From IMG/VR virus record IMGVR_UViG_3300002054_000060: 64,000 bases of DNA; one strand, written 5' to 3'. The notes beneath the pieces were generated by a model. It did no database searches and had not been told where the DNA came from. It saw nothing but the letters and a program-made list of their open reading frames with translations. The position numbers and the translations under genes are program-made. This DNA is from a virus. Below are positions 6,734-39,846 of the stretch, piece by piece (the first letter of the stretch is position 1; every line of letters begins with the position of its first letter).

Positions 6734-6909
6734 ATGCCCCTTGGTTCACCAACTACTATTGTCACGATGACTGCGCGGTACAACCCGGCGTGGCGTGGCA
6801 AGACGAATGGGACTGCATGTGTAATGACCGCTGCCCAGCATGCAACCACGAGATAGAGCCCTACCAATCCACTGAGCGCCCCTCAGAAGAGCCAACAAAC
6901 ACAAAGTAA
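6734..6909 (+). pseudogene. small Cys-rich protein with apparent frameshift near its start
   Basis: SD AAGGAG then ATG 6734 is out of frame with the WFTNYYCH..C...CNDRCPAC body by one base at a CCCC run. Confidence 0.45.
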
Positions 6910-6937
6910 GTACATGCTAACTTCAACAGGCAAAACA

Positions 6938-7219: not shown

Positions 7220-7233
7220 ATAGAAAACCCTTT

Positions 7234-7614: not shown

Positions 7615-7639
7615 CAACCCCCTCAGTATTGGCTTCATA

Positions 7640-7651
7640 GTAAACACTCAC
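7640..7651 (+). promoter_or_regulatory. 12-bp box (GTAAACACTCAC)
   Basis: 37 bp before ATG 7677. Confidence 0.75.
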
Positions 7652-7676
7652 TTACACACTACACATGGAAAAAATA

Positions 7677-7943
7677 ATGAAGCACTGGATACCGGTGGGC
7701 GATGCGATGCCACACCCGTTCAAACTCTGCCACGTCACCATAGCCAACCGAATTGGTGAGCGCTGGGTCGAGCGGCACCACTACATTCTGCGCGACAAGG
7801 ACTGGCGTAAAACCTATGACCCAAGTGTGCGGGCCAACGTTAATACCCCTGAAAATGACGGGGATATGATCGTGAGCTGGCGCTACATGGAAGAGGTGGG
7901 CATCGACGTGGATAGCCCACTGCCTGCGGAGATTGCGGCATGA
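7677..7943 (+). CDS. hypothetical protein
   Basis: MKHWIPVGDAMP... after the leader. Confidence 0.7.
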   Translation: MKHWIPVGDAMPHPFKLCHVTIANRIGERWVERHHYILRDKDWRKTYDPSVRANVNTPENDGDMIVSWRYMEEVGIDVDSPLPAEIAA

Positions 7944-8200
7944 CCTTCTGGCCCTCGCACTTGTCGTGGCCTGAAACCATCGTGGTGGGCTTGCTGGCCT
8001 TGCTTTGGCTGTCAATCATCTTGCGGCTACTGCTCACACCACAAGCACGGCAGTTTCTGCTGGGTGTCGAGGTGACAGTGGAAGGCAGGACGCGAGATGG
8101 GCAAATTCGCCGTCAAAAATTTCAGGTACGGGGAGCAAAAGCATTACGGCTGGCCCGCTCTGCAAAGCGACAAGGTATTTACTCTGATGGCCGCTCGTAA
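7940..8200 (+). CDS. small membrane protein
   Basis: ATGA overlap; TM segment IVVGLLALLWLSIILRLLL. Confidence 0.65.
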   Translation: MTFWPSHLSWPETIVVGLLALLWLSIILRLLLTPQARQFLLGVEVTVEGRTRDGQIRRQKFQVRGAKALRLARSAKRQGIYSDGRS

Positions 8201-8435
8201 GCGCAAGGGGATCCCAATAAAGGGCGTCGATGGCGAGCCGCTCGATGACCTGGTTACGCGGGAGTTTCGGAACGCCGCACGAGAAATCTCCCAAAAATTC
8301 ATGCACCACATCGTTGTGCACGATAGATCCCTGCAGGAGACGCTCACAGCCGTTTACATGCACGGCTTTATACACGGGCACCAGTTGACCCGTGAAAATG
8401 ACTCAGCGGTCACTGGGGCTGACGACGCGAACTGA
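8187..8435 (+). CDS. hypothetical protein
   Basis: Track ORF 8097..8435; start moved to ATG 8187 to reduce the overlap. Confidence 0.6.
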   Translation: MAARKRKGIPIKGVDGEPLDDLVTREFRNAAREISQKFMHHIVVHDRSLQETLTAVYMHGFIHGHQLTRENDSAVTGADDAN

Positions 8436-8460
8436 CAAAGCCCTTGTTGTGGCACATACA

Positions 8461-8472
8461 GTAACTAATCAC
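8461..8472 (+). promoter_or_regulatory. degenerate 12-bp box (GTAACTAATCAC)
   Basis: Followed by the TTACACACTACAGAGGAAA leader; 35 bp before ATG 8496. Confidence 0.7.
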
Positions 8473-8495
8473 TTACACACTACAGAGGAAACGCA

Positions 8496-9089
8496 ATGGA
8501 CATTCAGGGCTTTATCGACAGCGCTCCGAAAGCAGTCCGCTTTACAGATCAACCGCCACTGAGCGTGGAGCAATTTCAAGCAATTCAGTCACCGGATGAT
8601 TTGGTGGCAATTGCCAAAGAGCTAATTCTCGTGCCGGGAAACATCGCCTGCATTGAAAACGCCAGCGCTGGCTCAGAGGAAACAAGGGCGGTGCTTATCA
8701 ACTTTGCCGTGAACTATATATCCTTCCAAAGCGCTGGCGTCAGGGGTGAGGACGCGGATTACAACGTGAGTCGGGAATGGCTCAGAGTCTTGAGGATGGC
8801 ATTTGAGGGAATCAAGGGTAGTGGGCACACCATGTCCATTGATGTAGAAGGCGACTACAACTTTCATGGATCGCCGTACAACATCAAAGTCAAATCGGCA
8901 GAAGAGCACGTACTGTGGGGAATGTGGTTCGAGGCTCTACAAACAGAGTTCTCTGGAGAGCCCTTTCCAAACAGCAGAGACTGGGATGATTATCTTGCCG
9001 ATTGTGACGCAGATGAGAAGGCTCAATTGTTGGCGGCCAGAGATCGCTTTTTGAACATGCTAAGGGAAGAGGATCGGCTGGCGTTCTAA
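8496..9089 (+). CDS. hypothetical protein, MDIQGFIDS family (1 of 2)
   Basis: N-terminus shared with the next gene. Confidence 0.8.
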   Translation: MDIQGFIDSAPKAVRFTDQPPLSVEQFQAIQSPDDLVAIAKELILVPGNIACIENASAGSEETRAVLINFAVNYISFQSAGVRGEDADYNVSREWLRVLRMAFEGIKGSGHTMSIDVEGDYNFHGSPYNIKVKSAEEHVLWGMWFEALQTEFSGEPFPNSRDWDDYLADCDADEKAQLLAARDRFLNMLREEDRLAF

Positions 9090-9127
9090 AATCCAGCGCC
9101 AACACTAACCGCACACGGACGTGCATA

Positions 9128-9139
9128 GTAACCACTCAC
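9128..9139 (+). promoter_or_regulatory. 12-bp box (GTAACCACTCAC)
   Basis: 29 bp before ATG 9157; preceded by CCGCACACGGACGTGCATA. Confidence 0.8.
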
Positions 9140-9156
9140 TCAATAGAGGAAACGTA

Positions 9157-9756
9157 ATGGACATTCAAGGCTTTATCGACAGCATTCCCAAAGATGAGAG
9201 CCTTACGTGCAACCACCCGTCACTGACGGTCGAGCAAATGCAAGCCATAAATTCGCCCGACGACTTGATACTGATTGCCAACACCTTTTGTCTGCATGAA
9301 GATGACCAGATCTTGAAAAAATACGAGCCCGAGTACCAGTTATTTCTTCGCATCAACCTCGCTCTTAATTATCTGTCAGAAGTTCGTGAGGGCGATCTGA
9401 CTGCCCCCTACATAAGCCACACCAGCGTGGGTACTCCCGCATGGCGTCGTGTTGCCAAGATTGCGTTCGACGCTATCGCGGATTTGCCCTTTGTGATGTC
9501 CACGGACGTATCCGGGCAGCATGGCTTTTGTGGCTCGCCGTGGGATGAGCCAGTTCGCACAGTGGACGATTACGTGAGAGAGGTGCTGTGGCAACGCTCT
9601 CAGGAAAACGAGCCCTGTTTTTGTGGCCCGTGGGATTCTGAGTGGAGCGGTCAGCTTGCCCACGCTGATGATGAGGAACGCAAGGCAATACTCGATAGCG
9701 AGCAAACTTATTTGGCCGCGTTGGCTGCGCAAGAGGCCATCGCACAATCAGCTTGA
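9157..9756 (+). CDS. hypothetical protein, MDIQGFIDS family (2 of 2)
   Basis: Start reset to ATG 9157 after AGAGGAAA. Confidence 0.8.
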   Translation: MDIQGFIDSIPKDESLTCNHPSLTVEQMQAINSPDDLILIANTFCLHEDDQILKKYEPEYQLFLRINLALNYLSEVREGDLTAPYISHTSVGTPAWRRVAKIAFDAIADLPFVMSTDVSGQHGFCGSPWDEPVRTVDDYVREVLWQRSQENEPCFCGPWDSEWSGQLAHADDEERKAILDSEQTYLAALAAQEAIAQSA

Positions 9757-9781
9757 CACTTACCGCACACGGACGTGCATA

Positions 9782-9793
9782 GTAATCACTCAC
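9782..9793 (+). promoter_or_regulatory. 12-bp box (GTAATCACTCAC)
   Basis: 31 bp before ATG 9813; same upstream 19-mer as the 9128 copy. Confidence 0.8.
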
Positions 9794-9812
9794 TCACATT
9801 AGGAGCAAAACA

Positions 9813-10196
9813 ATGTCACACGGCGATATTTACATTGGCGGGGCTCGCTCGCTCAAGATCACGGACGGCACCATGATCGAGCAGTGGCTCACCGACGTGC
9901 TGTATTTCGGCATGTACAAGAACTCGGGCTACCCCCACTACGACGACGGCAGCTTCGACATAACGCTGTCGATGCACCACGCACGGGAACTTACCAAAGA
10001 CTTGCGCAGCCACCAGCAATTCGAGCAATCCCGATTCGCGCTCAACGCGACAAAGGAACGACGCGAACGGTGGGCTGCACTCAACGCTGATGCGGCATGG
10101 CTGATCGAGAAGATCGAGCTTTGCAACAGGACCGGCAAGCCCGTGCGCTACGTCGGTTTCGTGGGCGCAGAGGAGCTTGAGGAGGACGCGGCATGA
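9813..10196 (+). CDS. hypothetical protein
   Basis: AGGAG SD; 127 aa. Confidence 0.75.
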   Translation: MSHGDIYIGGARSLKITDGTMIEQWLTDVLYFGMYKNSGYPHYDDGSFDITLSMHHARELTKDLRSHQQFEQSRFALNATKERRERWAALNADAAWLIEKIELCNRTGKPVRYVGFVGAEELEEDAA

Positions 10197-10471
10197 GCAC
10201 GTTGAAACCCACAATGACAAGGCTCAACTGCATCGGCGTCAACAGCAACGACTTCCCGGATGAGTTCATCGAGTCGCTGCGCGGCACTGCAGAAGAGGTG
10301 ATGGAGCGCACGCATCTACTGGTACGGGTCATGGTGGATGACCACCCGAACGTGGTCATCAACACCGACGATGCTGCGCACCACCTGGAGAAAGAGCACC
10401 CCTACGTGGCGGAGTGGTTCCGCAGCATCGAAAGGACGGTGCAGTACGTCTTTATCTCGATTGATTTCTAA
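10193..10471 (+). CDS. hypothetical protein
   Basis: ATGA overlap, GAGGAGG SD. Confidence 0.75.
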   Translation: MSTLKPTMTRLNCIGVNSNDFPDEFIESLRGTAEEVMERTHLLVRVMVDDHPNVVINTDDAAHHLEKEHPYVAEWFRSIERTVQYVFISIDF

Positions 10472-10475
10472 GGCG

Positions 10476-10700
10476 ATGACTCACTATCTCATATCGGTGC
10501 TTGCGCGCATCGTTTTGCTGCCGGCTTACTCGAGAGAGGGGCTCTGGACTATCACTCAGGCGGAATCCAAGGACGTTTACAGACCTTGGTTCTATGTCGG
10601 CAGCGTCAGCATTGAACGGCGTGGCATCGAAGTCACCGGCTTCGTCGTGATCCTATGGCGCCGCAAGGTGTCAATCGGCTGGATTGGGCGCATCGAATAA
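10476..10700 (+). CDS. hypothetical protein
   Basis: ATG 10476 just after the previous stop. Confidence 0.5.
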   Translation: MTHYLISVLARIVLLPAYSREGLWTITQAESKDVYRPWFYVGSVSIERRGIEVTGFVVILWRRKVSIGWIGRIE

Positions 10701-10730
10701 CACAACACCACCCGCGCCCCAACGCATACA

Positions 10731-10742
10731 GTAAGCACTCAC
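10731..10742 (+). promoter_or_regulatory. 12-bp box (GTAAGCACTCAC)
   Basis: 37 bp before ATG 10768. Confidence 0.8.
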
Positions 10743-10767
10743 TCACACACTATGGATCAACAAGCAA

Positions 10768-11229
10768 ATGACGGTCAAACTCACAGACGCAGAGCGCAAG
10801 GTACTTGATCGCGCCGCACGCATCATGGATAAAGCGGTGCGCGAAGCGCCACAGGAATACGTAACCAACCCAGACGCGGTGCGTGAATACTTCAAGACCC
10901 GGCTTTTTGGCAAAGAAGCAGAAGGGTTCTACATGATGATGCTGAACAACAGGCACGCTGTCATTGATATGCAACTGATGTTCCACGGCACAATAGACAG
11001 CAGTGCGGTGTACCCACGCGAGATAGTCAAGCGTGTGCTCGAATGCAACGCAGCGGCAGTCATATTTGCGCACAATCACCCAAGCGGCGTGACCATTGCG
11101 TCCGATGCGGATATCAGGATCACGCGCAAGCTCACCGATGCTCTGGCGTTGATTGACGTGCGCGTGCTGGACCACCTAATCGCTGGCAACGGCACCATCA
11201 CTTCAATGGCAGAGCAGGGGCTAATGTAA
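10768..11229 (+). CDS. radC: RadC-family JAB domain protein
   Basis: AVYPREIVKR...AHNHPSG...SDADIRITRKL..AL.LIDVRVLDHLI signature. Confidence 0.95.
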   Translation: MTVKLTDAERKVLDRAARIMDKAVREAPQEYVTNPDAVREYFKTRLFGKEAEGFYMMMLNNRHAVIDMQLMFHGTIDSSAVYPREIVKRVLECNAAAVIFAHNHPSGVTIASDADIRITRKLTDALALIDVRVLDHLIAGNGTITSMAEQGLM

Positions 11230-11537
11230 TGCAACAGGCAGCTACAGCACGCAAAACTAGAGGGCGCGTCTCCGCGGGACCCATCCCGACACATTGGGTG
11301 ATCACCGTGGACGAACAGCCCAAGAGCGCGCAGGCGTTCGGTGACTGGTCAAGCTCGCCGATCGCTATTTTCGATGACGAGCAGATAGCGGAGCGTTACC
11401 TGTATCGGATGCGCTCAACGATGAAAGCCTGGATACACGAATGGTCCGGGCAATGCCCCAAGAACTACCGGTACAAGCTAAGCAAAGTACCTATGTCAGT
11501 CGGGACGTGTCGAGCCACAGGGGGGCGTTTTTTGTAA
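11229..11537 (+). CDS. hypothetical protein
   Basis: TAATG coupling to radC. Confidence 0.6.
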   Translation: MQQAATARKTRGRVSAGPIPTHWVITVDEQPKSAQAFGDWSSSPIAIFDDEQIAERYLYRMRSTMKAWIHEWSGQCPKNYRYKLSKVPMSVGTCRATGGRFL

Positions 11538-11562
11538 CAACGCCCTTGGTGTGGCTCGTATA

Positions 11563-11574
11563 GTAACCACTCAC
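11563..11574 (+). promoter_or_regulatory. 12-bp box (GTAACCACTCAC)
   Basis: 36 bp before ATG 11599. Confidence 0.8.
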
Positions 11575-11598
11575 TTACACACTACAGAGGAAATTCAC

Positions 11599-12105
11599 AT
11601 GTCGGCATGGATGTGCAACAACAGCACGATCTCCGCGGTTGCTTATGCGATTGTTGAGGAGAGGCTCCACACAGCCGGTGGTTTTGTAGCCGTCAGCGAC
11701 GTACATGAGTCACTGGTGTTCGAGAATATCCGGTCACTTAAGCATCGCTACGGCGACAGAGCTGACGGCATGATCGAAGAGTACGATCACGTCACTGCGG
11801 CAGAAGCGCTACCAGCGCTTGAGCCACACGATATTCGGTCACTCGCCAATTGCTTGTACTACCAGAGCTGTGAACACCCGGAGTACGAGAGCAGCCCCGG
11901 GTGCGAAGTCACCAAGGCGCTGATTGACCTCATTGAAAAGCGCTTTGCTGACAAGGGCATTGACAAGGACCGGATCCCTGATGGCCCTTGGGGGTTGACT
12001 GAATTGACTGCGGTATCAAAGCGCAGCTTTTTTGACCTGACAAAGCCAGAGAACCGGGAAACCAAAGCTGCGCTCAAGTCGATCGGCTTGACGCTCGCTT
12101 ACTAG
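11599..12105 (+). CDS. hypothetical phage protein
   Basis: MSAWMCNN...ENIRSLKHRY...CLYYQSCEHPEY; start after AGAGGAAA. Confidence 0.8.
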   Translation: MSAWMCNNSTISAVAYAIVEERLHTAGGFVAVSDVHESLVFENIRSLKHRYGDRADGMIEEYDHVTAAEALPALEPHDIRSLANCLYYQSCEHPEYESSPGCEVTKALIDLIEKRFADKGIDKDRIPDGPWGLTELTAVSKRSFFDLTKPENRETKAALKSIGLTLAY

Positions 12106-12182
12106 CAGTACCCCACTATCCCCACGTTGCTACCGACAGCAGCGTGGGGCTTACAGCCACCCACACAACAAAGGGAAATATC

Positions 12183-12593
12183 ATGCCAGACAACAGCACA
12201 GTTACTCACGGGGCTTTGCGTGAGCAGATTCAAAAGCATCTTGATGTCACCGTCAACGACATCATCACGCAGTACGGTCACGACGACCTTGAGGACGATG
12301 AGGAGCGCGAACCGCTAATACGCAGAGTCAAGCACGAAGAGCTAATCGTGCAGGGCATGATAGACCTGCTGGGCAGCATCAATGGCGACACCTCGTTCGA
12401 TATTGGACTGGTCGCAATGGGTGAAAGTGTCGAGAAAGAGCTGCACTTCAAAGGCGTTGTGTTGATTAACTCCGGCGACCAGTTCGGACGCGCCCTTGTT
12501 GAGCACCTGCTGGTGGTGCGCCTGAAAGCAATGGAGCTGGAAATAAAAGAGATGTTAAGGCTCATTCCTGATGATTTCAGTGACCGAGATTGA
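12183..12593 (+). CDS. hypothetical protein
   Basis: Start reset to ATG 12183 after AAGGGAAA. Confidence 0.7.
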   Translation: MPDNSTVTHGALREQIQKHLDVTVNDIITQYGHDDLEDDEEREPLIRRVKHEELIVQGMIDLLGSINGDTSFDIGLVAMGESVEKELHFKGVVLINSGDQFGRALVEHLLVVRLKAMELEIKEMLRLIPDDFSDRD

Positions 12594-12627
12594 CGCCCAC
12601 CCACACACTAACGGGAGACACACTCAC

Positions 12628-12987
12628 ATGGGACTGGACGCATTTGTACACACGCGAAATGAGCCGATCGAAGATGATGTTGATTTTGAAGCCATGAAGG
12701 GCGACGAACAATTCTTTCACTGGAAGAACCACTACGCCTTGGATTCGTGGTTGGTTAACCTCTACAACAAGCGTTGCGGCACTGGCAGTTGGAACGGCGA
12801 TCTGTTGCAGCTACGCCTGGGTGACATCAATCAGCTTGAAAGGGCGCTCGATTTCGGTGATCTAGCCAAGATCCCGGAATTTGGCGAATGGGCTGCCGAG
12901 TATGCAGATCAAGACAGGGAGTTCATCAAACTGGCACGCGATGCGATCAAGTCGGGTCTTTCGCTCTACTACTTCAACTGGTATTGA
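12628..12987 (+). CDS. hypothetical phage protein, MGLD...W family (paralog of 5945..6316)
   Basis: MGLDAF...FFHWKNHYALDSWLVNLY...LYYFNWY. Confidence 0.75.
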   Translation: MGLDAFVHTRNEPIEDDVDFEAMKGDEQFFHWKNHYALDSWLVNLYNKRCGTGSWNGDLLQLRLGDINQLERALDFGDLAKIPEFGEWAAEYADQDREFIKLARDAIKSGLSLYYFNWY

Positions 12988-12995
12988 GGCCGACC

Positions 12996-13400
12996 ATGAG
13001 CCATATCAAACTGTACGCCACCACGCGGTCGCTCATAGAGGGCCAGGTGGTTGAGCCAAGCGCCGCTGACAAGCTAGTGTTGGAGTTGCCCTACGACATC
13101 ATGCTGCACTTTACAGCGGTGGCTTTTCACATAGAACAGTTCACTGAGAGCGAATCACTGCCGGAAGCTCACGCAATACGGCTATGCGTCGCTCGCGCCT
13201 TCATTGATTTTATGGAAGAGCGCATGAACGCGGCCAGTGACAAAGCCTTGGAGATATTTTCCGATGACGAGAAGTTCTCGAAAAAGGCGATCACCGAGCA
13301 AATTGATTTCATCAAGCGCGGCGTCAAGCTCGAAAGCTCAATGAAGTCCACGCCGGTGCTGGGCTTGTGCCTGTACCTGGACGTAGCAGCGCCTGATTAA
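12996..13400 (+). CDS. hypothetical protein
   Basis: ATG 12996 after GAGG. Confidence 0.7.
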   Translation: MSHIKLYATTRSLIEGQVVEPSAADKLVLELPYDIMLHFTAVAFHIEQFTESESLPEAHAIRLCVARAFIDFMEERMNAASDKALEIFSDDEKFSKKAITEQIDFIKRGVKLESSMKSTPVLGLCLYLDVAAPD

Positions 13401-13427
13401 AACCAACAACACTGACCGGAGAAAACC

Positions 13428-13895
13428 ATGAGCGAAGCAGAAGATCGATTCACGGCAGAGAACCTGGAGACACTTGCTGACTTCATTGAAAAGCACGCAC
13501 CGCAAGAGCAGATCGACATGGAAGCCTACGTGTCACGCGAGGGAGAAGTTCTTGATTCAGACGTGGTCCCGAGCAATCTGCATTGTCTGGTCGATATAGG
13601 CGACACAACGCCGCCGACACTGGGGGACATACACGAGTGCGGCACTTGCTTCTGCGCTGTTGGCTGGGAGGCTGTGCGCTCTCCAGAAGCGGCTGCCAAG
13701 TGCAATAACTGGGAAGATTTGCAAGTAATGCAGTTCCCGGGCACTGAAGAGGTAGTGCTGCACGACAGTAAGCGCGGTATGGCTTTGTCCGGGGACGACT
13801 ACTGCTTCGGTGGCGAGCAAAGCAGAGACAAGGCAGACGTAATTAGCCGACTACGCGAGGTGGCCCAAGTGCTGCGGGGCAGATTGCCAGCGTAA
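13428..13895 (+). CDS. hypothetical protein, family B (NLE.LADFIE) 1 of 3
   Basis: ENLETLADFIE; CGTCFCAVGWEA; YCFGGEQS. Confidence 0.8.
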   Translation: MSEAEDRFTAENLETLADFIEKHAPQEQIDMEAYVSREGEVLDSDVVPSNLHCLVDIGDTTPPTLGDIHECGTCFCAVGWEAVRSPEAAAKCNNWEDLQVMQFPGTEEVVLHDSKRGMALSGDDYCFGGEQSRDKADVISRLREVAQVLRGRLPA

Positions 13896-13931
13896 CAATT
13901 CATTACCCACACTTACACACCGGAGAAACCC

Positions 13932-14195
13932 ATGAACACAAGAGAGCGAGGAGCACTAACCGCGCAGAATTTGATCGACCTGGCGGATTTCATCGAGCTG
14001 CAGTTTCAGAACCTGGATGGGTTCCACATGCGCAACGAGTATGAGGACGGCGATCTTACAGACGCCTACCACTACTGCTTCGGTGGCGCTCAGACAAGCA
14101 CCAAGTCGGCAGTCATCGGGCGCTTGCGCAGAACCGCTGATTTGATTAAGGAAGAGCTCGAGACAGAGCGTGCCGCGGAGCTTGCTGCTAGCTAG
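13932..14195 (+). CDS. hypothetical protein, family B 2 of 3 (central domain missing)
   Basis: QNLIDLADFIE and YCFGGAQT present; CGT.FCA core absent. Confidence 0.7.
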   Translation: MNTRERGALTAQNLIDLADFIELQFQNLDGFHMRNEYEDGDLTDAYHYCFGGAQTSTKSAVIGRLRRTADLIKEELETERAAELAAS

Positions 14196-14226
14196 CACCA
14201 ACACTGACCGCATCCTGTGGCACATA

Positions 14227-14238
14227 GTAACCACTCAC
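14227..14238 (+). promoter_or_regulatory. 12-bp box (GTAACCACTCAC)
   Basis: 35 bp before ATG 14262. Confidence 0.8.
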
Positions 14239-14261
14239 TCACTTGTTGCAGGATATTTGGC

Positions 14262-14642
14262 ATGGCTACCCCACGACGGCATTCCGCAGTGTTCTACTTT
14301 GAAGGAGCAGAGCAGGACGGTGCCCACCCCACGCTTCACACAATGAGCCACAACGATCCGGTGGCTTACTTTGAGTGGTTGCGTGCGCTGAACGCATACG
14401 TGACAGACAAGAGCGACACGCCAGAGTCCAGGGTCAAGGGACTCATTCGCAAGATCAGAAAGGACGGTGACTGGTTCGTGGGCGAGTCCGGTGACTCCTA
14501 CGCTGACCAGTCACTCGCCATCGTGAAAGGGCGTGCCAAACCCCATGCACGGTTCGTCTACTGCTTGCACGAGAACGGGGACGTTTCCGTGTGCCACGTT
14601 CGCAAGCAAGCGCGGCATCGCGCAATGGTTGGCGAGCAGTAA
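14262..14642 (+). CDS. hypothetical protein
   Basis: Start reset to ATG 14262 after CAGGA. Confidence 0.7.
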   Translation: MATPRRHSAVFYFEGAEQDGAHPTLHTMSHNDPVAYFEWLRALNAYVTDKSDTPESRVKGLIRKIRKDGDWFVGESGDSYADQSLAIVKGRAKPHARFVYCLHENGDVSVCHVRKQARHRAMVGEQ

Positions 14643-14671
14643 TCACCCACATACTTACCGGAGAAAACACC

Positions 14672-15148
14672 ATGCAAGACTCACTGATGCTGAAAACGGC
14701 AGATAACCTGGAGTTGCTAGCCGACTTCATAGAAGAGCACGCTGAGCCGGAATCGATTGACATGAGTTGGTACGTCACAGGCTATTACGGCAGCTCGATG
14801 CCAACTCAGCCTCTTCAAACTCGTGAACTCATCGAAAAGCTTACCAAGGTGCAGCTAGACAAAAAAGCACCCATTACTAGCGAGCACATGAATAATTGCG
14901 GTACATCCTTCTGCGCACTCGGGTGGGAAGCGCTGCGTGCGCCCAAGGTCGCAAGTTGGTACAGCGATTGGGTAAAGTTCCGGCAGCAGCAGTTCCCTGC
15001 GCTGGACGAGCTGGATATCAACGACGAGTTTGCCGTTGACTACTGTTTTGGCGCCGAGCAAAGCAGTAACAAAGAAGATGTGCTGGCTCGGTTGCGCCAC
15101 GCTGCCGGGGTGGTGCGCGGCAACGTTGGAATGGAAGCAACGCCCTGA
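14672..15148 (+). CDS. hypothetical protein, family B 3 of 3
   Basis: DNLELLADFIE; CGTSFCALGWEA; YCFGAEQS. Confidence 0.8.
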   Translation: MQDSLMLKTADNLELLADFIEEHAEPESIDMSWYVTGYYGSSMPTQPLQTRELIEKLTKVQLDKKAPITSEHMNNCGTSFCALGWEALRAPKVASWYSDWVKFRQQQFPALDELDINDEFAVDYCFGAEQSSNKEDVLARLRHAAGVVRGNVGMEATP

Positions 15149-15162
15149 CACCAGCTCTTATA

Positions 15163-15174
15163 GTAAACACTCAC
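15163..15174 (+). promoter_or_regulatory. 12-bp box (GTAAACACTCAC)
   Basis: 34 bp before ATG 15197. Confidence 0.8.
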
Positions 15175-15196
15175 TCGCATTACACAGGAAAATCAA

Positions 15197-15418
15197 ATGG
15201 CTAGGGTCAGCAACGAAAGAATACGAGCGGTCTTTCTGGAGAACATCACCAGCACCACTGAATCGGTGAGTTGGCAGGATATTGTCGTATCAATGAAAGC
15301 AGCAGGATTCTCCGGTAATTGGTTGCGAGTCCGCGGCGTGCTGCAAGGACTCAAAGATGAGGGCATCGTCAGGCGCATCGACAGCATTCACGTTGAAGAG
15401 TTCGTACTTACCGAGTAA
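15197..15418 (+). CDS. small protein, possible winged helix
   Basis: Leader plus 73-aa ORF; VRGVLQGLKDEGIV-like helix. Confidence 0.65.
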   Translation: MARVSNERIRAVFLENITSTTESVSWQDIVVSMKAAGFSGNWLRVRGVLQGLKDEGIVRRIDSIHVEEFVLTE

Positions 15419-15457
15419 AGAAACAGAACCAGCACCACCCGCACATGGAAGTGCATA

Positions 15458-15469
15458 GTAACAACTCAC
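15458..15469 (+). promoter_or_regulatory. 12-bp box (GTAACAACTCAC)
   Basis: 36 bp before ATG 15494; preceded by CCGCACATGGAAGTGCATA. Confidence 0.75.
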
Positions 15470-15493
15470 TCGCACTACAAAGGAATCCAAGAC

Positions 15494-15808
15494 ATGAAAA
15501 AGGCCAAGATCATCAAAGCGATCGCCGCAGACTTAAAGCATTACGCGAGAGTTCACATCAACTACGAGGTAACGCTATCGCAGGGCGAACCGCACTCTTA
15601 CGAGTGGCTTGAAAACATGCAGGATGTAGCCAAGTACCGGGACATCCTGCTGGGACGCGCAGAGGGCATTTGGACGGTGCTCTACGCTTTGGACGCGCAG
15701 GCCATTGGGCTTGACGGACGCATTCTGAGGGGTCCGGACGATTACGTGCATTACGTGATCGCCCAGTGCGTCAAACCGGTTGAGGCAAACAGAGCAGCAA
15801 GGGCGTAA
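15494..15808 (+). CDS. hypothetical protein
   Basis: Leader, AAGGA SD. Confidence 0.75.
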   Translation: MKKAKIIKAIAADLKHYARVHINYEVTLSQGEPHSYEWLENMQDVAKYRDILLGRAEGIWTVLYALDAQAIGLDGRILRGPDDYVHYVIAQCVKPVEANRAARA

Positions 15809-15833
15809 CTCTTACCTGAGTCCAGCTCTTATA

Positions 15834-17120: not shown

Positions 17121-17646
17121 CAACCATGCCGGCGTTGTAAACTCCAGTATCAGGGCATGGCCCGGGGGTTCGCGCTTGGCACGAGCCGGAACAATAGGCT
17201 CAAGGGCTCACGCGCTTGGGCCTTTTTTCTGCCCACGGCAACCACCCAAGCAAGCGCCAGCCCAAGCAAAACCCAGCGCCAAGGTGCCCACAAAAACGCG
17301 CTGTAAGCCCCCACAAGCGCACGGCGACACCCAAGCAATCCCAAACTCGCTGTAAAGCGATACAAAGCCCCACAGCGCCAGGCAACGCTTTGGCATAAAA
17401 CCGGGCCACAAATCAGTAACAAACCAAAATGTTAGCGTTAACACGGGGGTAACAAGCAGTGCGTCACCTTGCCAGGATCAGTGGGGCAAACTCTTTGAAA
17501 GCGTATAAGTTTTGCCCATAATGGGGCTATGAAAGGGGTACCAAAAGCCTCTTAAATACCGGCTGCAATGGCCCAAAACACCCCTTATTTTGGTCAGTTT
17601 TTGACCAATAAAGCCGCCAATTTTGGCCCAAAAAGGCGGAGTATGC

Positions 17647-17749
17647 CATTCCGCAGCAGGCAAACATCAACCCAAAACTGTGCGCTGCCTCCCATTCCGC
17701 AGCCTCAAAAGACCCACTCAGAAATGTGCGTTACCTCTCATTCCGCAGC
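17647..17749 (+). repeat. 3 x CATTCCGCAGC at exact 46-bp period
   Basis: Copies at 17647, 17693 and 17739. Confidence 0.85.
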
Positions 17750-17846
17750 TTTCTATCGCCCCAAAACAAGCCCAATTCCGCCTGAAATGGTGCTAATTTT
17801 TCAATCTTGCGCATAAACTCATAACGCAAAAAATATAACCTAGCAA

Positions 17847-17859
17847 TATCAACAACTTA
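17847..17859 (+). promoter_or_regulatory. IHF consensus site
   Basis: TATCAACAACTTA matches WATCAANNNNTTR. Confidence 0.55.
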
Positions 17860-18387
17860 CCGAGCCTTTCTTAGTTTGTTTCGACTGTGTTGCCTTGCAT
17901 AGTTAATATATAATTATTAGTTCTTGATCTTGGACCTAATGGTGCAAGGCACTCGCATCAGAAACTACTTTAAGTTTGCGCCGTAAGTTGCAAAACCACT
18001 AAAACCACACAAACAGCAAGGAAATACCCCACCAAGGCATCCGGAATTGAAATAACCCCACCGGAATTGTGGATACCCCCAAAACCCAAACCAAAACCAA
18101 CAGCGGCCAGCAAAACCAAAACCCAGCACACCACGGATGGACACCGCGGAATGGGAGACAAGCCCAAAGCGCTGCACAAGCCACGGCACCACCCAAGCCA
18201 AGCCCAAACCCCAGCGGAATAAAAAACAAGTCACATCGCAAGGCAAAGCCAACCCCATAACCCCCCACGCAAGGCTTCTCACAAGCCCACCACGCCACGC
18301 AAACCCCCAAACCCATGCCAGTGCATAGGGCACCCCCATAAAATCGCTTAAATCAGCTTAGGAGGGCCCAACCAAACCAAAACCAGC

Positions 18388-18420
18388 AAAACCCAAACCA
18401 AAACCCAAACCAAAACCCAA
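18388..18420 (+). repeat. tandem 12-bp repeat AAAACCCAAACC (about 2.7 copies)
   Basis: Read directly. Confidence 0.85.
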
Positions 18421-19331
18421 GGTTCTCCCCACCCCGGCAAGGCAAATCCAAAAAACAAGCATGAACATCCACACAGGCAAAACCAAACCCAACCAAAACT
18501 ACCAAGGCAACCCATAAAACGCACAGGCAACCCCACCACGCCACGAACACACCCAACCCCATAGGCAACTACCACCCAAGCCACAAAATCGCTTAGAGGG
18601 CGTTAGGTTGACCAAAGCCCAAAAATAAACAGGAAGGGGGAACTACCTAGCCAAATTCCCAAGAGAACTCCGGCAAGAGCAAAACCAATACAGGGATCCA
18701 CACAGGAGCAGCAGGGCAGGAGCTAATACCCCCGGAATAGAGCAAGCCCAACCCCAAGCACCAGCGGAATAGCGAAAGCCAGCCACAACGCACGGCAAAC
18801 CCCACAACAGCCATGCTCCCACCCACAGGCAAAACCAACATGCTTGCCCCCACAGGCAAAACCACAAGCCCACCACGGCACGCAAACCCCCAAAGTGATA
18901 CCAATGCACCACTAAGCCCACAAAAACGCTTAGAAGCGATTACAGAGGGCCCCAATCCCAAAATAAACAGGAAAGGGGAACTACCCAGCCAAATCCCCAA
19001 AAACAGCAAAGGAAAACTCTCAGAGAACTCCGGCAAGAGCAAACCCAACACACGGGGACCCACGGAGAAACAGGCAGGAAGAGGGGAAACTACCCAGGCC
19101 TCTACACGAGCAGCTTCCGGAAGAGGCAACACGCCAAGCAAGCAGCTTCCCAACAAGCACTCGACTCACAGAGGCAATACCAAAGCCCCACGGAGTTCTC
19201 AGCCGCAACGCAGCAAAGGGCGAAGAAGCTAGCAAGCTCCAAGGGAACTACAGCCCATGCTCTGTGCTGCCGGTGAGGGCCAGTACGCAGCGAATCCATA
19301 ACTCGAAGGCAGGAGTTTGGAAACTCTCCGG

Positions 19332-19433
19332 CATAAGGCTAATGCTCAATCCATAAGGCTAAGAAAATCCGTAAGGCTAAGGCCCATGTAAGACCCATTC
19401 TTGCCATAAGACTAAGCAAATCCGTAAGGCTAA
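19332..19433 (+). repeat. iteron-like array C(A/G)TAAG(G/A)CTAA, about 18-20 bp period
   Basis: Copies at 19332, 19352, 19370, 19405 and 19423, plus a degenerate one near 19388. Confidence 0.8.
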
Positions 19434-19910
19434 GGCAGGATTTTGGAAAACCCGCTTTCTGCTCTCTCAGCCCCAATCCCGTGCCTTGCCCAGCCGGCTT
19501 GCCTTTGCTCTCTCAGCCCCACACGCCGCGCCTTCCAGAGAAAATCAGCAGGCAAACCTAGCGCCAAATTCACCGTGTTTCCCGCCAGGTACGGCCAGCT
19601 TCGCCGTGTACGCACTCCCTCGGTTTACCCAAGGCACCCCGGAAGCCTGCAGGAGCCGCTCAGAGCCTCTGTGGGCCGTTAAACCCCCAAAGGCATGGCT
19701 AAGTACCACCTAACCGCCAAAAAGCCGCTGTACCGCGCCAGGTACGGTTGGGTGCTGCCCGCTACGGCTTTTCAGGTACGGCCAGCTTTTCCGCCTGGGA
19801 TTTGAAGGGGTACGGCTGGGCCCCGGTTCGTTGAGGTAGCCCGGAATGGCGCGGCGCAAGGCACCCCTTGTTTTTCATCACGGGGAGCCGATTTGGCCCA
19901 GATTTGCCTG

Positions 19911-20350
19911 TTTGCTTTGACCCCTTACACTTTGAAGCCAATTTTGGTTACCCCTCCCCGGAAGCGGGGAATCTTAAATTGTTGATTTTGTTGGAAATCC
20001 CAAAAAAGGGGTTTTTGGCTGAAAACCCCTGAATTACTACAAGACTTATACCAAAAACACGCTTTTTGAGAGGGTTTTGGGTGTAAACTATAAGGGTATG
20101 GCGTTTTCTGCCAGGCAAGCCGCCAGCGTGGCGAGAGGGAAATGGCAGGGTTACCGCGGCGTCGAAAGAAAAAACAGCGCAAAACGGCACTTTTGGTGAC
20201 AAACCCCGAGAAATGGGGGTTTTGCTTTGACCCCGCTTTTTGAGAGGGAAATTCTGGTTACCCCTCCCCGGAAGCGGGGAATCTTAAGTTGTTGATTTTG
20301 TTGGAAATCCCAAAAACGGGCTTTTTTGAAAAAACGCCCTGAAATACTGC
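19911..20350 (+). repeat. two copies of a about 130-bp repeat (offset 310 bp), each with hairpin, IHF box and hairpin
   Basis: 19945-20006 versus 20255-20316 differ at one base; TCCCCG-GAAG-CGGGGA stem; IHF consensus on - strand at 19975-19987 and 20285-20297. Confidence 0.9.
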
Positions 20351-20397
20351 AATTTCACCCCAAAACGGGCCCACAAAAAAGCACATGAATGCCCTGT

Positions 20398-20448
20398 AGT
20401 GAGTGCTTACTATGGAATCTCACTCACTCATAGCAGGAAACGAACATG
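20398..20448 (+). promoter_or_regulatory. 51-bp leader with the 12-bp box in inverted orientation (copy 1)
   Basis: AGTGAGTGCTTACTATGGAATCTCACTCACTCATAGCAGGAAACGAACATG. Confidence 0.85.
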
Positions 20449-20853
20449 GCCCAGGTAACGATCGAGCACATCGAGCACCTCGTCACCCAGCAGATTTTGG
20501 AAGGTGTTTACGCTTTTCTTGACGAGGTGGGCTGTCTGGACCTCTCCCACGACGGAGACCACGAACTAGCCCTGGGGCACATGCGTGATTTCCACGAACG
20601 CGCCAAGAGTGCATTCGAGGTACTGCACGCGATCTCCGAGCACGCCAGTGTGTACCTGTATCAATCTCGATACTTCAGCGATGACGAAAAGTTACAAAAC
20701 AGACTCCTGACCCCTCGTGCTGAGTCTGCGGATCACGCCAGAGCCTTTCTCTGGGAATATGCGCTCACTCGACAGATGAACGCATCGCACCGAGAAGCTG
20801 CTGAATTGAACGACAAGCTCGACAAGGTTGAGCAACTCGCCAACAAAGGATAG
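20446..20853 (+). CDS. hypothetical protein
   Basis: 135 aa, CAGGA SD. Confidence 0.75.
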   Translation: MAQVTIEHIEHLVTQQILEGVYAFLDEVGCLDLSHDGDHELALGHMRDFHERAKSAFEVLHAISEHASVYLYQSRYFSDDEKLQNRLLTPRAESADHARAFLWEYALTRQMNASHREAAELNDKLDKVEQLANKG

Positions 20854-20864
20854 CTAGGTAAAAG

Positions 20865-20892
20865 CAACCCCCACTCACCTGGGGGTTGTTTC
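20865..20892 (+). terminator. probable terminator hairpin
   Basis: CAACCCCC/GGGGGTTG stem then TTT. Confidence 0.5.
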
Positions 20893-20940
20893 AAGCCAAA
20901 AACAAGGCTCACCGGAAACAAGCAATAAAAAACACCCTTC

Positions 20941-20991
20941 AGTGAGTGCTTACTATGGAATTTCACTCACTCACAGCAGGAAACGAACATG
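20941..20991 (+). promoter_or_regulatory. 51-bp leader with inverted box (copy 2; 2 mismatches to copy 1)
   Basis: AGTGAGTGCTTACTATGGAATTTCACTCACTCACAGCAGGAAACGAACATG. Confidence 0.85.
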
Positions 20992-21306
20992 ATCGAATAC
21001 ACCAAGAACGAAAGCGGGTACACGTTCGAGTTCGACATGAACCGGGACGAACGCTTCCAGGGGCGCGTCAACAATTTTCTGGAACACCTGAAGAACCATC
21101 CGGAGGAGCGCGGGGTGGGCTGCAACACGTATGAGCTGGTCTGGCAAGACGCCCTGAAGCACGCCCAAGCCACTTACGGGGCCATGCCCACTATTGTTAT
21201 CCCGCACTTTGACGAAGTGGCGGACGGCCCGGAGGACTCCCGGCGTGGGCTGCCCATCGAGGGAGAGGATCTGGCGGAAATCATCAAGGACTACGGGCCC
21301 CAGTAA
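20989..21306 (+). CDS. hypothetical protein
   Basis: 105 aa after the leader. Confidence 0.75.
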   Translation: MIEYTKNESGYTFEFDMNRDERFQGRVNNFLEHLKNHPEERGVGCNTYELVWQDALKHAQATYGAMPTIVIPHFDEVADGPEDSRRGLPIEGEDLAEIIKDYGPQ

Positions 21307-21477
21307 GCCCCAACACGCCACGGACGGCGTGTTTTTGCCCCATGCAAGGCTCACCGCGGCAAAACGCCATGCGCCCAGCCCCAGGCAAGCCAATAGCGCG
21401 AAATACCACGCACGATGCCCTGGTGTGGTGCGCCATTATAGACACATGGCAGCGAAACACAGTGTTCGCGTCATTAG

Positions 21478-21489
21478 GTAAGCACTCAC
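21478..21489 (+). promoter_or_regulatory. 12-bp box (GTAAGCACTCAC)
   Basis: 34 bp before ATG 21512. Confidence 0.8.
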
Positions 21490-21511
21490 TCACACTACGG
21501 GAATACCCACT

Positions 21512-21706
21512 ATGGACCACATCGACCTGCACCTGGACCTCGAGCCCTCTGACGCAGAGCTGGAAACTATCGAAGCCCTGGAGACCATCAGCTTCGAGGA
21601 ATACCTCGCCCAGCGCGAGGACTACCTCAGCGATATCAACGACATCATCGGGGACATCGACGCAGTGCTGGAGAACCACGCTGACTACCTGGACGTGGTG
21701 CTGTAG
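21512..21706 (+). CDS. small, very acidic protein
   Basis: 64 aa, D/E-rich; follows the leader. Confidence 0.7.
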   Translation: MDHIDLHLDLEPSDAELETIEALETISFEEYLAQREDYLSDINDIIGDIDAVLENHADYLDVVL

Positions 21707-22161
21707 GAGCCACACAGCGCCCAGGGAGCGACTCTCTGGGCGCTACCCAACCCCAAAGCCCCACCGTGGGCTTAAAGCAGCCCACACACGCCCCACCGGA
21801 GAGACCCACCGCCATGAATGCCCCTCGACAAGAAGTGCCTGATCTTGACCACACTCTCGCAGACATCAGGGCAGACCCTCGCTTCACCGAACTACTCATG
21901 GGCGAGCTGCTGGCCCTGACAGCGGAACCTGAGCGTGTCTGCCAGCGCCTGCGCCCGGTAATGGCAAAGCACGCCGCGCTGCCTTCATGGGTGTGTGGGA
22001 GGACTGCCACCGACAGATGGCTGCGGTGCTGGACGAGGATTGGGTCCACAGCCAGCCCTAGCGCGCAGCAGGGAGCACGACGCCACAGAGACCCCCACGC
22101 CGGGGGCTGTTGGTCTACCAGCGGAGCAGGGGCCCCGCCAAATCGCTGCTGTACGAGGCTG

Positions 22162-22333
22162 GGTACGGCTGGCTCCCGCCCCTGGGATTGCTGCCCTCGG
22201 GGGTACACAAACGGGGCGCCGCCAAATCACTGACCTACGGCTTCAGGTACGGCTGGGCCCCGCGCCTCGACAAATTCCCCTCGGGTTTTTTCAGGTACGG
22301 CTGGCTCCCGCCCCTGGCAAGGCTGCCCTCGGG
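22162..22333 (+). repeat. GGTACGGCTGG array with a 40-bp direct repeat (offset 132 bp)
   Basis: Copies at 22162, 22246 and 22294; the same core occurs four times at 19586-19824 and once at 5491. Confidence 0.8.
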
Positions 22334-22389
22334 TTGCGCCAAGGTAAGTGACACGTCAGGTAAGTGACGCCACTCGCTTGACGCTGTGT

Positions 22390-22615
22390 CCAGGAGTCAC
22401 GAATGCGCTTCATTCGTGCCATAGCATCACTTATTCCTACACATCACATAATTTCATGATTCGTGACCCAGGATAACTAATGATCTAACGTCATGAATAA
22501 TGCAAATTCGTGACTTATGGGCACTTATTTCTGAATGTCACAAAATACACACTATTTGTTACCCAGAGTCACTTATTCTTATGCATCACGTATTAGCTTG
22601 ATTCGTGACTCCTGG
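22390..22615. repeat. AT-rich 226-bp segment bounded by a perfect 15-bp inverted repeat, with internal ATTCGTGAC copies
   Basis: CCAGGAGTCACGAAT (22390) / ATTCGTGACTCCTGG (22601). Confidence 0.8.
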
Positions 22616-22862
22616 GAACAGTGCCATTCTTGCATTGTCGCATATCGTCCTGGGTGATTCCGTGACGTGGGCATAGATGAACGCGCGTATACGCTTGAGC
22701 ATTACTCTTGTCAATAGTGCGAACATTACATTTTTGTAATGATTATTTTCGCAAATAATGCGCACAAGCGATGCGATGCGTGTACACTTTAGTCACTGGA
22801 GCAAACAACGCAACGCAGCGAAAACGCTCCAGTTCACTCGCTCACTTATAGGAATTTATCTC

Positions 22863-23447
22863 ATGACCACATCTAACACTGAATTTTTCTCATCTGTTAT
22901 CGCTGACGTTACGGAGCGCGTGAGCGCAACTGCTGCGCAATTCGCGCAGACTGGCTCTGCCAGTGATCGCTTGAGTCACTGCAATGCAGTGCTGCGCAAC
23001 AAAGTAGCTAACAAGCTTGTTAATGCGGATGGTGTCGCTGATTTCCTGTACAGCGCTGTACAGGACGATACAGGACGAAAGTACATTGACCCCAATACTA
23101 CGCCCAATGCGTACAGCTTGGAGGATCTCGCATCATACGCGGATGCGATCCTAGCGCAGGATAGCGCTCGAATAGCTGCGCATCGCGCTGGCACGCTGGA
23201 AGCGTTCAAAAACACAACGACGTGGCTTAGCGTGGAGCAAGCTCACGCACGCGCTGGCAGCTTCAATATCTCGCAAGTTAGGAACTGCATTCGAGCGCTA
23301 AAGTTTCTGGGAGTTCTCGAAACCAAAGAGGAAACCACGCAATGCGTAGCGCGTCCAGCGAAACACTTGTTCCGTCTGGTGAAATCCGATGGTGCCAAGG
23401 ACGCTAAAAAACTTGCTAAGGAGCGCATGAAAAAACGACTCGCGTAA
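22863..23447 (+). CDS. hypothetical protein with basic C-terminus
   Basis: Start reset to ATG 22863 after TAGGA; followed by two hairpins. Confidence 0.75.
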   Translation: MTTSNTEFFSSVIADVTERVSATAAQFAQTGSASDRLSHCNAVLRNKVANKLVNADGVADFLYSAVQDDTGRKYIDPNTTPNAYSLEDLASYADAILAQDSARIAAHRAGTLEAFKNTTTWLSVEQAHARAGSFNISQVRNCIRALKFLGVLETKEETTQCVARPAKHLFRLVKSDGAKDAKKLAKERMKKRLA

Positions 23448-23459
23448 CGTCAACCCATT

Positions 23460-23518
23460 GGCGGAGCATGGACGCTCCGCCACCACATTGGCGTCAAGTC
23501 TTAGACGCCATTTTTTTT
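23460..23518 (+). terminator. tandem hairpins ending in a Rho-independent terminator
   Basis: GGCGGAGC/GCTCCGCC and TGGCGTC/GACGCCA followed by T8. Confidence 0.8.
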
Positions 23519-23535
23519 GTCCAGGGCGCGACCCC

Positions 23536-23724
23536 GCCTGTGCTCGTTGGTTTTTCGTTAGCCCTTATAGTTTGGGTCAAGCCTAGCCTGTGCTCGTTGG
23601 TTTTTCGTTACCCCTTATAGTTTGAGCTAACCCCCGCCTCTGTAAAGTGGGTTTTCGTTGCCCCTTATAGTTTGGGTCATGCCTAGCCTCTGTAAAGTGG
23701 GTTTTCGTTGCCCCTTATAGTTTG
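23536..23724 (+). repeat. 4 x 50-bp tandem repeat
   Basis: Units start at 23536, 23586, 23636 and 23686; core TGG(T/G)TTTTCGTT..CCCTTATAGTTTG. Confidence 0.95.
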
Positions 23725-39842: not shown

Positions 39843-39846
39843 GCTC

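Follow-up and report, generated by a model that had tools for sequence, protein, structure and literature searches.

Positions 17,121 to 20,397 of the DNA analyzed here, a 64,000-nucleotide stretch (hereafter, the window) of the IMG/VR virus record IMGVR_UViG_3300002054_000060, form a gene-free, strongly strand-skewed tract in the genome of a large temperate siphovirus. We find that this tract is a much enlarged form of a conserved non-coding control module that is common to a widespread group of ~110-kb siphoviruses. What might such a module do? The explanation that we favor, tentatively and with somewhat less than even confidence, is that the tract serves as a packaging and replication control hub adjoining the terminus of the phage DNA, comparable to the concatemer junction of phage T7. 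The conservation of the module and the probable position of the DNA ends in two relatives are presented first, followed by the composition and anatomy of the tract and by the competing explanations.

The tract belongs to a conserved non-coding module

Judged by its proteins and gene order, the phage is distantly related to the SSU5-type phage-plasmids, the Rhizobium RHEph10/B1VFA phages, and the Pseudomonas Nickieviruses. Its portal protein is 44–50% identical to the portals of these relatives, and the order of the core genes is the same; its portal, terminase, capsid, and replication proteins are 25–58% identical to theirs. The relatives in question are the Rhizobium phages RHEph10, RHph_N1_10 (hereafter, N1_10), and B1VFA, the SSU5-type elements Cyrano, SSU5, and Klebsiella pJN2-26, the Pseudomonas phage nickie, and the Stenotrophomonas phage BUCTxx99. 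In a tblastn synteny comparison with five relatives, the tract lies in a variable arm between the replication block and the block that encodes a UvsW-like helicase and the terminase, and its flanking genes are orphans on the + strand.

A composition scan of five related genomes was used to locate the corresponding tracts. The same order of elements recurs in Cyrano/SSU5/pJN2-26, in BUCTxx99/nickie, and in N1_10/B1VFA: inverted boxes with an AT-rich spot are followed by a T-poor tract and then by an array, and in every lineage a hairpin or terminator stands between the T-poor tract and that final array. The boxes of the relatives occur in both orientations and have lineage-specific sequences. 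Here and in the relatives, the T-poor tract is oriented as the sense strand of the flanking genes. The property that all lineages have in common is this depletion of T on the sense strand, not an excess of C over G. The T fraction is 0.08 in the present tract vs. 0.13–0.16 in those of the relatives. Cyrano has a tract of 0.7 kb in which A+C reaches 0.75 (z = 7), that of BUCTxx99 spans ~0.25 kb (A 0.41, C 0.29), and those of N1_10, B1VFA, and nickie are T-poor over 0.25–0.6 kb.

Two short words add to this architecture. In five of the six lineages, ACGGC or CACGGC is enriched in the final array, N1_10 having a CCATGG array instead. The array of the present phage contains four copies of ACGGC where 0.5 would be expected in 301 bp; the regions compared were picked after the sequence had been viewed, which renders the associated P values optimistic. 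The second word, ATAGAGA, is rare in these genomes and is found inside the tracts of N1_10, B1VFA, nickie, BUCTxx99, and Cyrano.

The SSU5-type tract (Cyrano, SSU5, and pJN2-26) is the most instructive counterpart. Like the present tract, it is gene-free, occupies the same variable arm in the same sense orientation, has an A+C content of 0.75–0.77, and is preceded by an AT-rich spot with inverted boxes and followed by an ACGGC-type array. It differs in its size (0.7–0.8 kb in a hub of 1.5–1.8 kb vs. 1.3 kb in a hub of 3.3 kb here) and in its iterated word (GCCATTAC); sequence similarity between the two is undetectable. Moreover, the SSU5-type elements are plasmid prophages, whereas the present phage integrates. 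Among SSU5, Cyrano, and the Klebsiella elements, the tract is 67–75% identical. Plasmids of 243 of the 5,426 complete E. coli genomes carry it, and the PGAP annotation of this stretch is empty. We found no description of the SSU5-type tract or of the module in the literature. A cluster of Chi sites that would protect against RecBCD was considered and rejected, as Chi is not enriched in the E. coli-type tracts.

The conservation of the tract is therefore of a particular kind. A blastn search of 50,697 phage records returned no match at the nucleotide level, and what has been kept is the syntenic architecture of the module; because sequence similarity is undetectable, the homology of the tracts rests on synteny and architecture. 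No close relatives of the phage were found in viral and genome collections, either through the proteins that flank the tract or through the pattern of its promoter boxes, and a search of viral contigs with the portal protein retrieved just one 14-kb fragment.

The packaged DNA probably begins beside the module

Are the ends of the virion DNA related to this module? Phages B1VFA and V1VFA-S have fixed ends with direct terminal repeats (DTRs) of 3,605 bp and 3,939 bp, respectively (PMC12509600), and the Nickievirus Nican01 is described as having a “DTR (long)” (PMC11256456). These papers do not give the coordinates of the repeats (PMC12509600, PMC11256456). The database records of B1VFA, Nican01, and nickie start away from the physical ends, and the ends thus cannot be read from the records themselves.

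We constructed a base-level map between B1VFA and V1VFA-S and sought those left boundaries for which a span of 3,605 bp in the former corresponds to 3,939 bp in the latter. At a tolerance of ±1 base, the 95,154 B1VFA positions tested yielded a sole fit, at 39,631–39,809. This fitted left boundary lies 70–250 bp past the T-poor tract, inside a CCACGGCAA array, and the right end would then fall at 43,235–43,413 (coordinates of MT770738.1), in the next intergenic gap. The 334-bp difference in repeat length is approximately that produced by an extra small gene in V1VFA-S (V1VFAS_038) together with ~12 bp of small indels; with the difference so explained, the B1VFA repeat is placed at ~39.7–43.3 kb. 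If the boundaries are homologous in B1VFA and V1VFA-S, the hub would hold the left end of the packaged DNA in these phages.

In the present phage, a candidate terminal repeat of ~3.4 kb (20,258–23,665) is located just to the right of the tract. It corresponds to a separate Logan contig whose depth exceeds that of the contigs of 40–70 kb on either side: in run X1, a depth of 115.8 compares with 83.4 and 82.0 for its 41-kb and 58-kb neighbors (1.40-fold), and in run X2 the value was 162.5 vs. 142.8 and 140 (1.15-fold), all of these being per-contig means and not copy numbers. The contig is bounded on its left by a 103-nt repeat and on its right by four copies of a 50-bp tandem repeat. The right-hand contig of run X1 ends within a 262-bp gap that must contain attR, an arrangement that suggests that integrated and joined forms coexist; the one from run X2 continues into host DNA. 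Taken as a hint, the depth and the attR pattern together fit a mixture of prophage and free DNA with a terminal repeat of ~3.4 kb, a size that matches the repeats of the relatives.

The phage was also assembled as a circle, which is compatible with fixed ends and a direct terminal repeat. The overlap between the two ends of this 107,151-bp contig is exactly as long as the 119-base word of the assembler, and the contig thus represents a closed circle with an arbitrary break; its end was rejected as a physical DNA end on the same grounds. The terminus of this phage is probably at the right edge of 17,121–20,397 or just past it, outside the skewed part.

Composition and gene content

The sequence-only reading that preceded this analysis had described a + strand dominated by A/C words, a switch to G/T-rich words at 19.75–20.34 kb, at least six classes of repeats, three boxes matching the consensus for IHF, and no credible open reading frame. 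The A/C dominance is evident and resolves into a main arm (17,960–19,250) and a shorter piece (17,236–17,440). At 18.0–19.2 kb, the A+C content of the + strand is 0.76–0.80, which is 6–7 standard deviations (SD) above the mean of the 103,961-bp record: it is 0.76 in 500-bp windows (record mean 0.512, SD 0.040) and 0.80 in 400-bp windows (z = 6.8). Between 18.05 and 19.1 kb, the AT skew ranges from +0.66 to +0.70 and the GC skew from -0.22 to -0.49 (300-bp windows). The G/T switch, by comparison, proved weak, as the GC skew (+0.02 to +0.16) and AT skew (-0.19 to +0.06) of that interval are within the normal spread. The asymmetry is local; a turning point of the genome-wide cumulative skew was sought at the tract and was not found.

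As had been proposed, the tract has no credible gene. Two public gene callers place none between 17,112 and 20,446. A coding role was rejected, since the mechanical open reading frames are low-complexity artefacts of composition (rich in Trp/Gly/Phe or in Pro/Thr/Lys) with no Pfam matches. There is no tRNA in the tract, and the covariance models of Rfam 15 had no matches at E ≤ 1 on either of its strands; the same was true of the Cyrano analogue. A design based on stop codons was likewise discarded, because none of the eight tracts tested has more stop codons than expected. The count of repeat classes holds as well, with at least seven families present. So does that of the IHF boxes: the tract contains three of the five IHF-consensus matches of the 64-kb window, for which ~1 would be expected in its whole length, and all three have ATCAACAAYTTA in common.

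Nor is the tract an artefact of assembly, because it is 100% identical in independent assemblies, including the circular 107,151-bp contig, which derives from another sample. A JGI variant with ~100 extra bases was dismissed as a natural variant; it consists of a scaffold gap of Ns and a 25-bp duplication. A minor variant contig from run X2 has two base differences at 18,521–18,573, within the A/C arm (depth 3.4 vs. ~130), and the tract is thus polymorphic within the culture.

Anatomy of the tract

The left edge of the tract is marked by an intrinsic terminator, T1 (17,196–17,230, + strand), that closes the upstream array of + strand genes. It comprises a 9-bp G+C-rich stem followed by six T residues, and its minimum free energy (-25.1 kcal/mol, z = -3.2) was equaled by none of 200 shuffled sequences. 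Directly 5' of T1, 41 nt (17,150–17,190) are shared, with 2 mismatches, with a 19-kb contig of another element from the same sample (depth 55), which differs from the phage on both sides of the match. The left A/C-rich segment follows T1 (17,236–17,440, + strand; A 0.35, C 0.36, G 0.20, T 0.09) and has CCCAAGCAA-type words in common with the main tract. The best sigma-70-like promoter match of the region (17,495–17,522, + strand, reading rightward) consists of TTGAAA, 16 nt, and CATAAT; it is a consensus match only, at 10 of 12 positions. An inverted repeat read from the sequence (GGGGCAAA / TTTTGCCC) overlaps it.

The next portion resembles an origin in its layout. Four ATTCCGC boxes on the + strand (17,646–17,783), three of them at an exact 46-bp spacing, precede an AT-rich core (17,793–17,942) that is the least stable duplex of the 104-kb record in nearest-neighbor scans at 100 and 150 bp. 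The core contains an IHF-consensus box (17,847–17,859) and is bracketed by a 9-bp inverted repeat (17,891 / 17,943). Six ATTCCGS boxes in the opposite orientation (18,041–18,764, - strand) are found within the main A/C-rich tract, and a seventh is located at 19,841. The tract thus has 11 of the 27 ATTCCGS sites in the record (0.9 expected), and the least stable 150 bp separates four + strand sites on its left from seven - strand sites on its right. The duplex that ranks next in the record for low stability (22,432–22,581) comes 4.6 kb after this first AT-rich core; it is part of a segment (22,343–22,670) for which a perfect inverted repeat of 15 bp has been noted, together with nested ATTCGTGAC sites.

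The main A/C-rich tract (17,960–19,250, + strand; A 0.39, C 0.35, G 0.19, T 0.08) is built from three or four degenerate units of ~250–345 bp. The self-similarity of these units (111, 91, and 60 bits) exceeds that of composition-matched shuffles (30 ± 4, maximum 39.7). Four blocks, designated D2, D4, D5, and D8, are 87–91% identical inside units that are ~64% identical overall.

Beyond this arm, the tract becomes a succession of arrays. Five TAAGRCTAA words (19,289–19,449, + strand), spaced by 18–35 bp, are all of the copies in the 104-kb record and are bracketed by two copies of a 35-bp repeat (83% identical). Two exact copies of the 16-mer TGCTCTCTCAGCCCCA (19,460–19,521, + strand), the only two in the record, are 46 bp apart. 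They are followed by an array of four GGTACGGC words and one GCTACGGC (19,586–19,830, + strand), which corresponds to the ACGGC-core arrays found after the tracts of the relatives. The words arrayed in the region include ATTCCGS, GGTACGGC, and TAAGGCTAA; candidate proteins that might bind them are the small subunit of the terminase and the ParB-like proteins, whose genes lie upstream of that of the terminase. A second GGTACGGC array is found on the same strand at 22,162–22,310, with an identical 17-nt word 2,437 bp from the copy in the first; the two arrays bracket three small genes and a G+C-rich stretch of doubtful coding (21.3–22.8 kb).

At the right edge, a unit of 103–134 nt, at which the public assemblies break, is present in two copies 310 bp apart (19,911–20,352). 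Each has a hairpin. On the - strand, these units carry IHF-consensus boxes (19,975–19,987 and 20,285–20,297) and intrinsic terminators (20,030–20,007 and 20,340–20,317), and a TATAGT promoter-like site lies between them (20,114–20,087, - strand). Because the terminators face inwards on both flanks, the interior of the hub would be shielded from outside transcription.

An inverted copy of the early promoter/operator box of the phage, TAYAGTAAGCACTCAC (20,394–20,416, - strand), stands directly before the first gene past the tract (20,446–20,853). Eleven + strand copies of this box, TAYAGTAA(G/C)CACTCAC, precede early gene cassettes (3,084–15,830 and record positions ahead of the window). Each is followed by a conserved leader, and a conserved -35 element is not visible. 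The box is probably the phage’s own promoter/operator signal. Other intergenic sites have a 12-bp near-palindrome, GTAAGCACTTAC, that is related to this box.

A proposed control hub beside the DNA terminus

In the scheme that we infer for this phage, from the direction of transcription through the priming step and the binding protein to the exact DNA end, the hub would sit immediately upstream of the left boundary of the long direct terminal repeat of the virion DNA. It would act in cis on the initiation of packaging and on end formation, and probably also on the start of replication. With outside transcription excluded by the terminators on both flanks, the inverted boxes for an initiator or regulator, placed around easily melted DNA that IHF would bend, could bring about opening or firing in the rightward direction. 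The 1.3-kb A/C arm would be polar: its sense RNA and the displaced DNA strand could not fold, and the RNA would be poor in U. The arm may thereby send a transcript, R-loop, or primer without obstruction in the direction of the arrays and the terminal-repeat boundary. Terminase or a partner, having bound the ACGGC-type array there, would make the cut.

A stronger version of this scheme, which we regard as improbable, holds that the A/C arm is a cis-element of a new kind. Transcription that begins at the box/AT-rich core would pass through the arm, and the resulting unfoldable, U-poor RNA, as an R-loop or primer directed at the boundary of the terminal repeat, would start rightward synthesis that duplicates the repeat and licenses cutting by terminase. 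If this were true, the same device would be expected in the SSU5-type phage-plasmids, the Nickieviruses, and the Rhizobium phages.

The sequence-only reading had proposed a functional DNA element, be it a terminus, an origin, or a translocation signal, and had suggested that the skew may serve a directional motor. These proposals are partly supported: a cis-acting hub beside the terminus of the virion DNA is now favored, and an origin-like core is also present. An injection stop of the T5 type is unsupported, and nothing supports a motor that reads the skew.

How does such a hub compare with known systems? The concatemer junction of T7 and T3 has the phiOR promoter/secondary origin, the short-repeat arrays SRL and SRR, and pac sequences beside the terminal repeat. 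In T7, transcription towards the junction takes part in the formation of the ends, a process that needs duplication of the repeat. Descriptions of this junction are said to go back to Dunn and Studier in 1983 and to Chung and Hinkle in 1990. The proposed likeness is that short-repeat arrays in non-coding DNA adjoin a direct terminal repeat and that a promoter or origin reads towards the junction. The T7 junction differs in being only a few hundred bp long, with a 160-bp repeat; it depends on the phage RNA polymerase and is without a long strand-skewed arm. The present phage has an arm of 1.3 kb and a repeat that is probably 3–4 kb in length, and a phage RNA polymerase was not seen.

The injection-stop region in the terminal repeat of T5 offers a second comparison. 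This region, too, is repeat-rich and gene-free and lies beside or within a terminal repeat, and T5 is likewise a large siphovirus; its direct terminal repeat is long, as is probably that of the present phage. However, the T5 region is inside the repeat, whereas the tract studied here is apparently outside the left boundary of the candidate repeat. We know of no two-step DNA transfer in this phage group and of no description of strand skew for T5.

Several observations weigh against a hub of this kind. The terminase genes are 20 kb from the tract, there is no genome-wide skew switch at the tract, and its sequence has no similarity to the relatives’ tracts that blastn could detect. The ATAGAGA word of the relatives is absent from it. 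No B1VFA position fits the repeat lengths exactly (the fit is off by one base), the homology of the boundaries is assumed, and B1VFA has no array at its inferred right boundary and no motif common to its two inferred repeat boundaries. The depth values of the candidate repeat, being contig means, are a hint only. Finally, no transcription is evident at the start of the corresponding tract in a lysogen of Cyrano, where normalized expression falls from ~57 (CYRAN_102) to a floor of ~5 (CYRAN_103). Any RNA-based step would thus be confined to lytic growth.

Alternative explanations

Could the tract be a barrier to transcription? An oversized rut site might act as a Rho-dependent insulator that halts read-through from the early cassettes unless an antiterminator acts. 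The properties of the transcript favor this idea. The + sense RNA would be untranslated, it has a C/G ratio of ~1.85, and that of the A/C arm is nearly unfolded (-3 to -19 kcal/mol per 100 nt vs. a genome mean of -27.9 ± 6.4); as in the rut region of lambda tR1, it would be unstructured, C-rich, and G-poor. In the SSU5 types and BUCTxx99, as in the present phage, the tract has the orientation of its neighboring genes, and the drop in expression at the start of the Cyrano tract is what a barrier would be expected to produce. Nonetheless, we consider this explanation unlikely. A strong intrinsic terminator, T1, already stands ahead of the tract. The tract, at 1.3 kb, is several times the length of known rut regions, and an order of magnitude longer than such regions as that of lambda tR1. 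A rut site would have no need of conserved internal blocks, boxes, and arrays, and stop codons are not enriched. The tracts of nickie, N1_10, and B1VFA are T-poor without an excess of C over G, so that a rut-like composition is not the shared property. The depletion of T in all lineages fits hybrid stability or an unobstructed transcript better than it fits a pure rut site. We rank the Rho barrier below the hub because T depletion and not C excess is shared, because an intrinsic terminator precedes the tract, and because its internal boxes are conserved.

A second alternative, which we hold to be doubtful to a similar degree, is a stand-alone origin of lytic replication that is unlinked to the DNA ends and whose boxes flank an unwinding element. 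Here, the A/C arm would be a non-folding landing strand for a DnaB-type helicase, gp32, and primase, and initiation might be primed by an R-loop, as at oriF and oriG of T4. The pattern of eleven ATTCCGS boxes, inverted around the least stable DNA of the record and accompanied by an IHF box, is iteron-like. The lineage-specific clusters of inverted boxes at the same place in the relatives are what would be expected of sites that co-evolve with a cognate protein. The phage also encodes a suitable set of proteins, namely T4-like gp32, a RecA/UvsX-like protein, a UvsW-like helicase, Mre11/Rad50-like proteins, DnaB, primase, and Pol III alpha. The predicted stability of an RNA:DNA hybrid fits the origin as it does the hub: with the stability parameters used, the + sense 1-kb window at 18,359–19,358 ranks second in the genome for hybrid over duplex stability (z ~ -3).

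Like the present tract, oriF and oriG of T4 and the c2-type origin of Lactococcus are non-coding and combine a promoter with an unwinding element, and this phage has T4-like replication and recombination genes, including that of the UvsW-like helicase. These origins differ in measuring 0.1–0.6 kb and in having neither a long skewed arm nor a link to the DNA ends. Within the phage itself, no initiator gene was identified beside the tract, whose neighbors are orphans, and the cumulative skew does not turn there. A cluster of DnaA boxes was rejected, as there is a single near-consensus box and no enrichment. The clusters of inverted boxes could equally be operators. An origin function is compatible with the hub, and the two may coexist.

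A trans-acting long non-coding RNA, such as a sponge that would sequester Hfq, CsrA, Rho, ribosomal protein S1, or a protein of the phage, is very unlikely to be what the tract encodes. An unstructured RNA with repeated motifs is possible, and GGA is enriched in the tract (27 copies vs. ~16 expected, z = 3.7), where it occurs once per 48 nt. However, GGA is not enriched in six relatives and is absent from the N1_10 tract; a CsrA sponge of the CsrB/RsmZ type was discarded because the enrichment is limited to this phage. Further, Rfam offers no match, the Cyrano analogue is silent in lysogens, and a clear promoter-terminator pair that would delimit such an RNA was not found in the present phage.

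Least probable of all is a functionless spacer, that is, unconstrained DNA that grew by slippage and acquired its skew from a polar mutation bias: the tandem duplications are degenerate and the primary sequence is not kept beyond close relatives, but composition, orientation, and position have been kept across deep divergence (including the 243 of 5,426 E. coli genomes noted above), the islands of 87–91% identity persist in units that are ~64% identical, and phage genomes are under pressure of packaging size.

Occurrence and significance of the module

SSU5-type phage-plasmids occur in ~4% of complete E. coli genomes; they are also found in Klebsiella and Salmonella, where resistance genes can be among their cargo. 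Other relatives infect Pseudomonas syringae, Stenotrophomonas, and Rhizobium. Because the present phage integrates, the module is not tied to a plasmid lifestyle or to cargo genes. An element that marks the DNA end would inform the specificity of packaging, the potential for transduction, the orientation of genomes in databases, and the engineering of these phages. The tract in this window is the largest and most dissected example of the module.

The phage that carries the tract

The element is a ~107-kb temperate siphovirus that is integrated in a proteobacterial chromosome. On a 386-kb scaffold, the prophage lies between host genes cmk-rpsA-ihfB-lapB-pyrF and queA-tgt-yajC-secDF, with its integrase at the left end. 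Its borders are at pyrF/comF-like genes and at queA (386-kb scaffold, L007 7,300–9,000 and L009 15,245–15,507). The tract was rejected as the site of attP, given that the integration site is at the integrase, ~40 kb away. In the second sample, the two ends of the prophage are joined (107-kb contig L008), as in an excised or concatemeric form.

Five genes of the phage bear inteins. They encode the UvsW-like helicase, a GNAT-domain protein, the large terminase, RecA, and DnaB, and they are located at 31,943–34,621, 36,557–38,803, and 39,787–41,718 of the window and at L002 10,324–12,654 and L003 13,082–15,844. Several of the inteins have LAGLIDADG homing-endonuclease domains.

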